Below, piece by piece: positions 24,823 to 27,630 of a DNA stretch of 41,454 nucleotides. Source of the DNA: Desulfosporosinus sp. (GTDB lineage Bacteria > Bacillota > Desulfitobacteriia > Desulfitobacteriales > Desulfitobacteriaceae); assembly GCA_027353165.1 (NCBI GenBank), contig DAIEHY010000002.1, forward strand, positions 1 through 41,454. The letters run 5' to 3'. The position numbers and the translations under genes were made by a program. Within the stretch, counting starts at the first letter, position 1. Each line of letters starts with the position of its first letter. A model generated the notes under the pieces. It was not told where the DNA came from, did not search any database, and saw only the letters and a list, made by a program, of their open reading frames with translations.

Positions 24823-25800
24823 TTATAGTTTTCTGACTACTGGACCGGCCTCTGACCCTTCTGTTTGACAGCGTTGGCAGGATGATGTTACGCCTTGCTC
24901 GACAGGACATTCGACCTCTCTGCTACTACATGGTTCTGCATGTATCAGGACAAATGTTTGATGTAACCTCTCATTAATTTCCTGCTCTATCCTGTCACAA
25001 AGTTCATGGGCATCAACGACTGAGGTGTATTTAGGAACCACCAAATGCAAATCAACATGTCTTTCCGCTCCAGCCCTCCTTGTACGAAGTTTGTGAAATT
25101 CCACAAATTCATCCGCATGAAATAAAAGGACTTCGGCGATAATCTCACGTTCTTCATCTGGTAAACTGACGTCAACCAGAGGTGAAAATGCTTTCTTCGT
25201 CAAGTCAAAGGATGCTCTGATAATCATCATAGCAACCCCCAGCGCTATGATCGGGTCTAGGATTGTCCACCCCGTAAATTTAATCAAGAGTATCCCTATA
25301 AAAACTCCGACTGAGGTATAAACATCCGTCCTTAAATGCATAGCATCCGCTTCGAGTGCTACTGAATCCGTCTGCTTGGCTACCTTCATAAGTCGTGTTG
25401 AGACGATCAAATTAATAAGTGCAGAAACACCCATAACCAGTAAACCTAAACTAAGACCAAAATCCGAGACGTGTCCTCCTTCTCCATAAATAATATCCAT
25501 AACTTTCTGAAACGCTTCCACGATAATCATCAGAGCAGCCACAAATATTAAAGCAGCTTCAATTGTACCCGAAACATTCTCAATTTTTCCATGTCCATAG
25601 GCATGACCTGAGTCTGCAGGTTTCCCCGATTCCCTGACTGCAAAAAGCGCAATAAAAGCCGCCACTAGGTCAATGCCAGAATGGATTCCCTCTGACAGTA
25701 TACTTACCGAGCCGCTACTTAACCCGATCACAATTTTACTAAACGTTAAGAAACTATTTGATGCGACAGATAATGAAGCCACCTGTGTCTTCTCATCCAC
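24823..25800 (-). CDS. Cation diffusion facilitator (CzcD/FieF-type metal exporter)
   Basis: SEGIHSGID, PADSGHAYGHGKIE, ADAMHLRTD, C-terminal domain HVDLH...IHAEP, Cys-rich tail. True start is GTG 25800 with AAGGAG RBS; the ORF-track extension runs through the leader RNA. Confidence 0.93.
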   Translation of the reverse strand: MDEKTQVASLSVASNSFLTFSKIVIGLSSGSVSILSEGIHSGIDLVAAFIALFAVRESGKPADSGHAYGHGKIENVSGTIEAALIFVAALMIIVEAFQKVMDIIYGEGGHVSDFGLSLGLLVMGVSALINLIVSTRLMKVAKQTDSVALEADAMHLRTDVYTSVGVFIGILLIKFTGWTILDPIIALGVAMMIIRASFDLTKKAFSPLVDVSLPDEEREIIAEVLLFHADEFVEFHKLRTRRAGAERHVDLHLVVPKYTSVVDAHELCDRIEQEINERLHQTFVLIHAEPCSSREVECPVEQGVTSSCQRCQTEGSEAGPVVRKL

Positions 25801-25850
25801 GTCAATACTCTCCTTCGCTAAAATACTACTGATTAGATTATGGCAACACA

Positions 25851-25882
25851 TAAAAATAGGACTCCTTATATCAAGGAAGTCC
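25851..25882 (-). terminator. Riboswitch expression-platform terminator upstream of the CDF gene
   Basis: GGACUUCCUU-GAUAU-AAGGAGUCC followed by UAUUUUUAU; its 5' arm overlaps the aptamer's 3' GGGAC. Confidence 0.75.
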
Positions 25883-25932
25883 CGCGGATCCTCCGCTGCC
25901 TCAAAACATGAAGCCCAGCTATTGCCTGACAT
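25877..25932 (-). ncRNA. NiCo (czcD)-like metal-sensing riboswitch
   Basis: GUCAGGC-AAUA-GCUGGGC-UUCAUGUUUUGA-GGCAGCGG-AGGAU-CCGCGGGAC has the czcD junction motifs CAGGC / GCYGGGC / GGCARC / GYGGGAC in order, upstream of a CDF exporter and overlapping a terminator. Confidence 0.78.
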
Positions 25933-25989: not shown

Positions 25990-26436
25990 TTATATTGTTA
26001 AGAAGTTTCCGTAGAAGATAAATACTGCTCCGAGAAACAAGCGCATAATCGTAATAGAAAAACTTCTTATAACCTGACTCTTCTTATCTTTAGGGATAAA
26101 CCCTGTCCCAACCACTAGGACCCAAGTAATTATAGCCGCAAGTGGAGTAAGAAAAGCACCAAAGAAGACTAAACTGACCACACCTCCGACCAGTCCGTTC
26201 ACTGTCTTACCTTCGTTGGCTATTCTTCCAAGGATGAGTAGAGATATTATTCCAACCGTTCCTCCAATGAGCAGGGGTATTTGCCATTGCCAAAACTGTG
26301 CCCCTTCATTAAAACGATAATTGAATCCACTTAAGACTATTGTGGCTAAAACTGTTCCCCATATCCCGCCAAAGAAAATGATTCCTGCGAAAAAAATAAG
26401 TACCCCTTCAAATAATATTAGTTCAATAAATCCCAC
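25990..26436 (-). CDS. Hypothetical multi-pass membrane protein
   Basis: About five Gly-rich hydrophobic segments; GTG start at 26436 preceded by GGAGG. Confidence 0.72.
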   Translation of the reverse strand: MGFIELILFEGVLIFFAGIIFFGGIWGTVLATIVLSGFNYRFNEGAQFWQWQIPLLIGGTVGIISLLILGRIANEGKTVNGLVGGVVSLVFFGAFLTPLAAIITWVLVVGTGFIPKDKKSQVIRSFSITIMRLFLGAVFIFYGNFLTI

Positions 26437-26534
26437 AAACCTCCCTCCCCCTCTTCGCTTGTGGTAGTATAACCTAATCACCAGCAACCTAATCACGCTC
26501 TTACATCACACATTTTATCAACGTAATACTTGGA

Positions 26535-26561
26535 ACTTTTTTCCAATTAATTTCATATTCT
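26535..26561 (+). promoter_or_regulatory. Sigma-K-like promoter for the Trp-rich peptide
   Basis: ACt-N16-CATATTCT, against the consensus ACm-N16-CATAnnnT. Confidence 0.45.
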
Positions 26562-26615
26562 GTATTAGCAATAGCTACTAATAAACCAAATTGTGAATAG
26601 AAGGAGGTTTTCTCT

Positions 26616-26705
26616 ATGTGGTGGGGTCGCTGGGGCTGGGGTGGTTTCCCTTGGTGGGGCTTTGGATTTGGTCCATGGTGGGGCTTTCGTCGTTGGTGGT
26701 GGTAA
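26616..26705 (+). CDS. 29-aa Trp/Gly-rich peptide MWWGRWGWGGFPWWGFGFGPWWGFRRWWW
   Basis: Perfect AAGGAGG RBS 8 nt upstream of ATG 26616; TAA at 26703-26705; 11 Trp and 8 Gly; below the ORF-track size cutoff. Confidence 0.8.
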   Translation: MWWGRWGWGGFPWWGFGFGPWWGFRRWWW

Positions 26706-26797
26706 GTGTCACTAGACCGTAAAAACCAAATTCGTTGGATGTCATAGTATAATCTCTATTCTTATAACTTGTAATAATTTTAGAATCGGTAATTAGA

Positions 26798-26832
26798 GGA
26801 TCGCTGTTCAACGTGTCAGTGATCCTTAGTTT
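26798..26832 (+). terminator. Hairpin, candidate terminator of the Trp-rich peptide gene
   Basis: GGATCGCTG-N10-CAGTGATCC followed by TTAGTTTT. Confidence 0.45.
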
Positions 26833-26899: not shown

Positions 26900-26926
26900 T
26901 AGAGGACCCTAAATAAGGGTCCTCTA
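26900..26926. terminator. Terminator hairpin ending the microprotein array
   Basis: Perfect 11-bp stem TAGAGGACCCT-AAATA-AGGGTCCTCTA, 20 nt past the last array stop codon. Confidence 0.7.
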
Positions 26927-26946: not shown

Positions 26947-27042
26947 TTAAAAGATAACCCCTAAGGCGATCAGAATTAAGATTGCAATTGCAATGATCCC
27001 AGCTCCTGCAAATCCACCAACGCCAGCTCCATACCCGTACAT
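26947..27042 (-). CDS. Microprotein B' (31 aa) MYGYGAGVGGFAGAGIIAIAILILIALGVIF, YjcZ/SscA-like
   Basis: GGAGGTG RBS; Gly-rich head and single C-terminal TM helix; paralogous to 27199-27345. Confidence 0.85.
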   Translation of the reverse strand: MYGYGAGVGGFAGAGIIAIAILILIALGVIF

Positions 27043-27081: not shown

Positions 27082-27171
27082 TTAGAATACGATTCCCATG
27101 GCAATAAGCAAAAGAATAATCACGACAACGATTGCGATTCCAGCGCCAATTCCAGCTCCACCTGCAAACAT
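27082..27171 (-). CDS. Microprotein A' (29 aa) MFAGGAGIGAGIAIVVVIILLLIAMGIVF, YjcZ/SscA-like
   Basis: GAGGAGG RBS; paralogous to 27388-27519, with synonymous codon differences. Confidence 0.85.
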   Translation of the reverse strand: MFAGGAGIGAGIAIVVVIILLLIAMGIVF

Positions 27172-27198: not shown

Positions 27199-27345
27199 TT
27201 AGAAAATTACTCCTAAAGCAATTAAGATCAAAATAGCAATAGCAATGATCCCAACACCTACGCCAACTCCGACGGGTGCAACGACAGGTGCAGGTGCGCA
27301 ACAACCCACGCCGTATCCTGGACGAGAAGCTCCATATCCGTACAT
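27199..27345 (-). CDS. Microprotein B (48 aa) MYGYGASRPGYGVGCCAPAPVVAPVGVGVGVGIIAIAILILIALGVIF
   Basis: AAGGAGG RBS; same MYGYGA start and identical 17-aa C-terminus as B'. Confidence 0.85.
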   Translation of the reverse strand: MYGYGASRPGYGVGCCAPAPVVAPVGVGVGVGIIAIAILILIALGVIF

Positions 27346-27568: not shown

Positions 27569-27596
27569 TAAGATATGTCAATCAAAGTTCAAGTGT
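27569..27596 (-). promoter_or_regulatory. Sigma-K-type promoter of the microprotein array
   Basis: ACA-N16-CATATCTTA matches ACm-N16-CATAnnnTA. Confidence 0.62.
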
Positions 27597-27630
27597 TAAC
27601 ATTTTCCAGTTTCTCTTCATGTCCTATCAG

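Follow-up and report, generated by a model that had tools for sequence, protein, structure and literature searches.

A tryptophan-rich microprotein gene with a predicted sigma-K–type promoter in Desulfosporosinus and its relatives, a candidate spore coat component

The Bacillus subtilis spore coat proteins CotT and YmaG are rich in Tyr, Pro, and Gly. Together with YeeK, which is annotated as Gly/His-rich (PMC3533761, supplement), they are reported to be sigma-K–dependent inner-coat proteins (PMC13553755 and PMC12311139), and the inner coat also contains SscA, described as a hydrophobic protein of only 28 aa (PMC13417171). Another very small mother-cell product is SpoVM, a 26-aa peptide that the account in PMC10730256 places at the forespore membrane. 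The sigma-E and sigma-K promoters of Clostridioides difficile and B. subtilis have the -10 box in common and differ in the -35 region, given as ATA vs. AC in PMC3789822, and mapped sigma-K promoters often read GTAACA–~16 nt–CATA (PMC7438776, Table S6). For clostridia, PMC3533761 reports finding neither of the Bacillus scaffolds, SafA and CotE, and predicts low-complexity coat proteins that are as yet unidentified. Which proteins build the coat in clostridial lineages without Bacillus scaffolds is an open question, for which we describe here a concrete candidate, a Trp-rich peptide of unusual chemistry that is cheap to synthesize.

The gene lies in a 41,454-nt stretch of forward-strand DNA (the window, Table 1) from Desulfosporosinus sp. 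(assembly GCA_027353165.1, contig DAIEHY010000002.1), the genome of which comprises 2.24 Mb and is 67% complete. The elements listed in the original prediction are all present in the sequence: an ORF preceded by an RBS and encoding 29 aa, with 11 Trp and, after the initiator Met, solely Trp, Gly, Phe, Pro, and Arg (W11 G8 F4 R3 P2 M1). A predicted internal repeat is an exact 12-mer, with identical copies at 26652 and 26676. Genome-wide, this gene ranks top in Trp fraction among 83,187 start-to-stop frames of 15 to 100 codons, and when the 2,725 frames with an RBS-like motif are considered, its fraction is 0.38 vs. 0.22 for the runner-up. In keeping with its description as unannotated, an exact look-up found 0/8 peptides in a collection of 15 billion proteins.

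Table 1. Features of the Trp-rich peptide locus, numbered from the first nucleotide of the window
Feature	Position	Strand	Basis or remark
Divergent gene for a 148-aa membrane protein, DUF456-like	25990-26436	-	Lead only: ESM Atlas match (0.92) to a cluster named DUF456
Predicted sigma-K–type promoter of the peptide gene	-35 (GGAAC) 26532-26536; 17 nt; -10 (CATATTCT) 26554-26561	+	Conserved in orthologues; consensus as given in PMC3789822
RBS (AAGGAGG)	26601-26607	+	8 nt 5' of the ATG; AGGAGG kept in 19/19 aligned loci
Gene for the 29-aa Trp/Gly/Phe/Arg/Pro microprotein	ATG 26616 to TAA 26705	+	Sequence and conservation in homologues
Hairpin with a short U-rich tail behind it, probably terminating the peptide mRNA	26796-26827	+	-16.3 kcal/mol; z -3.9
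Another hairpin, probably terminating the convergent array	26900-26926	-	z -5.1 (minus strand) and -6.6 (plus strand)
Convergent array of four Gly/Tyr/Cys-rich microprotein genes, hydrophobic C-terminal segment	26947-27519	-	Sequence
Array genes of 43, 48, 29, and 31 aa	27388-27519; 27199-27345; 27082-27171; 26947-27042	-	
Predicted sigma-K–type promoter of the array (TTAACA-N16-CATATCTT)	27570-27599	-	Tied top of 1318 upstream regions (matrix 2)

As far as sequence can tell, the Trp-rich ORF is a real protein-coding gene. A 451-nt query from the locus gave a DNA match in 18/24 genus relatives, and in 16 of these 18 the similarity is restricted to approximately the RBS and the ORF. Conservation of frame and RBS, which had been set as a check, was seen in 19/19 aligned loci (window included). 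The ATG-to-stop frame is open in all of them, with 25 to 36 codons and in-frame indels, the stop codon is TAA in 11 and TAG in 8, and Gly, Pro, Arg, and Phe are encoded by mixed codons. In these 19 loci, which were chosen by DNA match, Trp, Gly, Phe, Arg, and Pro account for 542/553 residues (98%). Synonymous differences were seen in 4401 of 9256 aligned codon pairs for the same Gly, Pro, Arg, or Phe residue across 38 members (pairs that are non-independent). A conserved but untranslated element, either an RNA or an overlapping frame, would agree with the gene being called so rarely by gene-finding programs. The open frame, the in-frame length changes, the TAA/TAG swap, and the synonymous differences make the probability of this very small. 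The overlapping +2 frame is poorly kept, with 16 to 95 codons across members. An antisense ORF was rejected as the conserved element, its 89 aa in the window shrinking to 16 to 58 codons in 36 other members, and a structured RNA was rejected as well, the peptide mRNA having no stable fold (z +1.45) and the window locus no match in Rfam.

We searched for homologues with a profile and with a pattern consisting of RBS, start, WW, and stop. The union of the two yields homologues in 41/68 other genomes of the family, 28/41 within the genus and 13/27 in other genera. The profile found members in 26/41 genus genomes and 2/27 other family genomes, while the pattern matched in 38/68 family genomes (0 for a reversed control). 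Both have blind spots: members without an MW start or a WW end escape pattern searches, and the hidden Markov model (HMM) is of limited sensitivity, the HMM-negative genome G045 carrying a member and G050 having been likewise missed. In sister families, 0/34 genomes had a homologue. A phylum-wide profile draw was positive in 3/401 genomes, host genome included, which is a weak negative because the HMM misses true members; the lone outside match (G330) was rejected since it is antisense within a long gene. Run against 185,579 GTDB genomes, the pattern matched 41 times, and 26 of these matches are in-frame Trp/Phe/Gly/Pro/Arg peptides, found in records named Desulfosporosinus, Desulfitobacterium, or Paradesulfitobacterium and in three vaguely named metagenome-assembled genomes, the peptides of which are identical to those of family genomes. 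Members made up 21 of 66 metagenome matches plus one viral match, none of the 21 being viral; the single match in viral contigs is off-frame. A profile search of 1.84 billion cluster representatives added three unnamed singleton clusters. The peptide has no match in Pfam, NCBIfam, or PHROGs, nothing at ≥0.9 in the ESM Atlas, and one chance match in the PDB (E 1.6), and its AlphaFold model is uninformative (pLDDT 58, pTM 0.15). No paper on this Trp-rich family was found in the open-access literature.

In three genomes, G012 (99% complete), G020 (100%), and G065 (94%), the locus is present but lacks the peptide gene; they are negative in both searches, and all three carry dpaA. Since near-complete genomes of spore-formers thus have no detectable copy, the gene looks accessory. 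In G071, it is found at a second array. Two Trp-rich ORFs of 25 to 28 aa with an RBS and sigma-K–like sites occur in unrelated gene contexts (L283:1201-1278 and L248:1201-1287, both on the - strand), the former at 64% GC and Cys-rich, and are possible analogues in other lineages.

When is the gene expressed? The plain pattern that we tested, AC-N17/18-CATA-N3-T, is a consensus from C. difficile and B. subtilis sigma-K promoters. It is found upstream of 31/55 member rows, compared with a shuffle mean of 1.5 (maximum 6) and a background of 29/1333 genes in the genome, which agrees with the sigma-K–like promoter originally proposed for the window. The other 24 rows have a TC/GC-type -35 (nine), a CATA box only (12), or neither (three). 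The same pattern precedes dpaA in 5/5 relatives and 11/23 array first genes, and in five relatives it is missing from spoIIID (0/5), spoIVA (0/5), and SASP genes (0/10, leaving out SASP locus L225); locus L219 was dropped from this comparison for its truncated flank. Counting against it, yabG, which is sigma-K–dependent in B. subtilis and C. difficile, shows the pattern in 0/5 genomes. We also scored upstream regions with two matrices. Matrix 1, which was overfitted, gave the array promoter a score of -6.7. Its top 20 genes, compared with 20 random ones (20 of 40 chosen genes covered in each group), included no sporulation-named family; FeoA and a cation-efflux gene were among them, both gene types being listed as sigma-K targets in C. 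difficile (PMC7438776, Table S6). Matrix 2, re-tuned after matrix 1 and trained on members only, placed the array tied first and the host dpaA fourth of 1318 upstream regions.

A CATA-type site also lies upstream of the cation-efflux gene of the window (24823-25932, - strand), and a cation-efflux gene is sigma-K–dependent in C. difficile (PMC7438776, Table S6). A search for CotJA returned nothing in five genomes. The host encodes sigma-K itself (TIGR02846, above the curated cut-off), and dpaA is present in 67/69 family genomes; G001, G013, and G016 have two or three dpaA matches each, reflecting duplication or assembly contamination. By eye, several Desulfitobacterium members have a TTGTCA-type -35 like the site before spoIIID, so some of them may be driven by sigma-E, which is, like sigma-K, a mother-cell factor. 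Judging from its promoter, the peptide gene is very probably expressed in the mother cell during late sporulation. A second unannotated microprotein family, unrelated to the Trp-rich peptide (29 to 35 aa, Arg/Trp/His-rich, with a short hydrophobic core; G000:C11:998-1093, - strand, and L108, L112-L122), has a DNA match in 19/41 genus genomes and a sigma-K–type pattern in 10/11. Its genes mostly run divergently from what may be an efflux operon, and at about half of the loci they converge with a membrane gene that may be SdpI-like. The like promoter of this family suggests a wider hidden set of microproteins.

The usual gene order is a cation-efflux gene, the divergent DUF456-like gene, the peptide gene, and a convergent Gly/Tyr-rich array. 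In our neighborhood count, which relied on a crude motif test over 55 member rows (including one duplicate start and some short flanks), the array is convergent within 1.5 kb at 42/55, in agreement with the synteny that was to be checked next to the microprotein array, and the DUF456-like gene is divergent at 46/55. The divergent 148-aa protein has no Pfam match; its gene is retained at 4/4 loci without the peptide gene, and some peptide genes occur without it. The downstream hairpin of the original prediction was found as well: 0/200 shuffles were as good, and a simple terminator scan did not include it in its calls. Elsewhere, the peptide gene may directly follow a same-strand array gene, without a promoter of its own (L091/L298 and L110) or with one (L262). 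The L262 member (148-249, - strand) has a Gly-Tyr insert resembling array N termini, which may point to a shared origin of the two families or to recombination between them. The second peptide copy of G043 precedes a Gln/Pro/Tyr-rich low-complexity gene (L299:3646-4053, - strand), and a Gln/Pro-rich low-complexity gene at G000:C100:2827-3345 (+ strand) has the promoter that matrix 1 scores highest genome-wide; neither matches Pfam or NCBIfam, and both are coat candidates. No exporter, immunity, or modifying gene recurs in the 1.2- to 1.5-kb flanks of the inspected loci.

Array homologues are found in 65/68 family genomes and in 18/29 of one sister family. The arrays, which vary in copy number, alternate between two types of Gly/Tyr/Cys-rich membrane microproteins, and a further array lies at G000:C177:13849-14136 (+ strand). 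They have no match in Pfam or NCBIfam. Their layout, with a Gly/Tyr-rich start and a hydrophobic end, is presumably like that of YjcZ/SscA, which we treat as a lead only because the YjcZ model fails and the names of array homologues are uninformative. Identity with the YjcZ/SscA family was rejected: PF09680 gave no match even at E 10 and matched the B. subtilis control. One array operon ends with a 41-aa Tyr/Pro/Gly-rich gene annotated as hypothetical (L058:351-476, - strand), presumably reminiscent of YmaG-type coat proteins, and in a sister family (G039) a 72-aa Gly/Trp/Tyr-rich ORF with a hydrophobic core (L020:1351-1569, + strand) combines features of the array and of the Trp-rich peptide. 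Like yjcZ, which PMC3533761 (Table S3) lists for Bacilli as a sigma-K gene of 49 aa in several copies, the array genes are multicopy, similar in size, and preceded by a sigma-K–type promoter.

We compiled 50 distinct member peptides by filtering at >75% Trp/Phe/Gly/Pro/Arg, the resulting content being 97%. They have 24 to 36 aa, a net charge of +1 to +5 (only +1 in 2/50), and 6 to 14 Trp codons per gene; Asp, Glu, Lys, Cys, Gln, and Thr are all absent from their 1422 residues. Trp clusters at both ends with Arg adjoining: 49/50 have WW at the C-terminal end, and 44/50 end in at least two Arg followed by aromatics. Between the ends lies an uncharged core of 15 to 26 residues in 48/50 members, mostly 17 to 24, with a full range of 10 to 26. 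Aromatic runs of two to three residues are interrupted by Gly and Pro (one to three Pro per member), which make up about one-third of residues, Gly alone ∼25%. The window peptide has a net charge of +3, a GRAVY of -0.58, a predicted A280 of ∼15.5 per mg/ml, and a predicted interface partitioning energy of -21.7 kcal/mol. Its helical moment is unremarkable, 78% of shuffles scoring as high, which indicates no amphipathic helix. Members differ in length by repeat units at constant composition, which would suit a material better than a lock-and-key binder.

Of the four functions originally proposed, which were spore coat or exosporium component, membrane-active peptide, Trp store, and modified precursor, a role in the coat or outer layer seems to fit best. 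We consider it reasonably probable that the Trp-rich peptide is a mother-cell, late-sporulation microprotein that is added to the forespore and contributes a hydrophobic, aromatic constituent to these layers. This proposal is based on the promoter pattern (31/55, and dpaA 5/5), the convergent array (42/55), the lack of an amphipathic helix, and length variation by repeat units. The sigma-K polymerase would make a short single-gene mRNA. Since the coat is assembled from the mother-cell side, the peptide would require no export and would be deposited on the forespore from there. Gly/Pro breaks between the short aromatic runs would prevent a helix and favor aromatic stacking and Arg–Trp contacts, with packing beginning at the interface of the forespore membrane and continuing among copies of the peptide or with array peptides. 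The spore would likely benefit through a more hydrophobic or adhesive surface, a barrier to permeation, or the screening of UV light and oxidants. A sigma-K promoter tells the time and place of expression, not the structural role of the product, and described coat families gave no sequence match (Pfam 0, NCBIfam 0, PDB chance E 1.6).

The predicted interface partitioning and the uncharged core would suit membrane insertion equally well. A peptide inserting late into the mother-cell or outer forespore membrane of the sporangium, where it would perturb or anchor and so aid lysis, passage of small molecules, or anchoring of outer layers, could account for the Trp clusters and Arg at both ends, and it would have a precedent in SpoVM, the 26-aa mother-cell peptide at the forespore membrane (PMC10730256). 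We regard this reading, the main rival of the coat role, as unlikely. Because a third of the residues are Gly or Pro, there is no transmembrane or amphipathic helix; core length varies from 10 to 26, the charge is +1 in two members, and no lysin gene adjoins the peptide gene in inspected loci. Quite improbable is an indolicidin-like antimicrobial without a leader, set free when the mother cell lyses or borne by the spore against competitors or grazers. Size, charge, GRAVY, and Trp richness are near those of the leaderless bacteriocins in PMC6131525 and of the Trp-rich antimicrobial peptides in PMC6017362, and like the former the peptide has no leader, is cationic, and falls within the 26 to 51 aa of the table rows in PMC6131525; a missing leader alone thus does not speak against a bacteriocin (PMC6131525). 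However, the gene is mostly a single chromosomal syntenic copy in several genera, and the inspected 1.2- to 1.5-kb flanks contain neither an ABC exporter nor a dedicated immunity gene. The DUF456-like gene persists at 4/4 peptide-less loci and is absent from some peptide loci, there is no family match, and viral contigs contain no member.

The Trp store and the modified precursor found no support in the loci inspected. A Trp reserve, or a Trp-sensing leader controlling a neighbor, would explain the 6 to 14 Trp codons per gene, and in G061 (L037) the peptide gene lies ∼480 nt upstream of a same-strand trpB-like gene; this locus (L037/L146, 1014-1590, - strand) has a T-box at 1094-1342 between the two. 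Even so, both are very improbable. The trpB-like gene has that T-box (RF00230, 109 bits) as its own, a hairpin and a TTGACA-type promoter are seen by eye between it and the peptide gene, and G061 is the sole such case among inspected loci, a hairpin followed by convergent genes being usual elsewhere. The rejection of a classical cis Trp attenuator in the original prediction, on the grounds that no + strand gene follows, holds: the convergent array comes next in the window, and the lone trpB-adjacent case has its own T-box. Storage does not need a fixed Gly/Phe/Pro spacing. Gamma-SASP is a spore-core protein. It is the amino-acid reservoir described in PMC10730256, and the promoter of the Trp-rich peptide is instead of the mother-cell type. 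Likewise highly improbable is the precursor of a posttranslationally modified peptide, for instance a Trp-cross-linked one, with enzymes encoded elsewhere. Many regularly spaced Trp would suit it, and coat proteins are described as cross-linked in B. subtilis (PMC3533761). Nevertheless, there is no division into leader and core and no recurring modifying enzyme in the inspected 1.2- to 1.5-kb flanks, on which grounds we also rejected membership in RiPP precursors, and cross-linking inside the coat would belong to the coat role that we favor.

A bolder version of the coat role, which we consider decidedly unlikely, is that in these strict anaerobes the peptide self-assembles into an aromatic film on the spore that absorbs UV light and takes up oxidants through stacked Trp, within a hidden set of sigma-K microproteins (Trp-rich, array, and Arg/Trp/His) replacing a Bacillus-type coat, or else that it forms a gramicidin-like membrane beta-helix with Gly in place of D-residues. 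The hosts are sulfate- and halogen-respiring anaerobes of soil and sediment, the dispersal of which depends on spores. The Trp-rich gene escapes gene calling, and its peptide would probably escape routine tryptic proteomics; two further microprotein families, the array and the Arg/Trp/His family, have the same promoter type. If the peptide is self-assembling or membrane-permeabilizing, nature would offer in it a template on which Trp-rich materials or antimicrobials could be modeled.

How does the Trp-rich peptide compare with known systems? With indolicidin, tritrpticin, and leaderless bacteriocins it shares a Trp/Arg/Pro-rich, cationic, and extended character, the bacteriocins having 26 to 51 aa in the table rows of PMC6131525. 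Indolicidin and tritrpticin, in contrast, are 13-residue mammalian peptides, and the Trp-rich peptide differs from all of these in having ∼25% Gly, a lower charge density, a sporulation-type promoter, and no exporter/immunity cluster. SpoVM is alike in size and in the predicted site of synthesis but is an amphipathic helix, depends on sigma-E, and is required for normal spores, whereas the Trp-rich peptide shows no helical moment, has a sigma-K–type promoter in most members, and was not found in some spore-formers. Membership in SpoVM was rejected, the helical moment being no better than that of shuffles and Pfam giving no match. Alike, too, are SscA, YeeK, CotT, and YmaG, the small late inner-coat proteins of B. 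subtilis, which are also small or of low complexity and lineage-restricted, although there is no match in sequence family and Trp and Phe are used instead. Taken together, these comparisons suggest that the Trp-rich peptide, while outside every family tested, likely resembles in its action a small late coat protein, one with an unusual chemistry.
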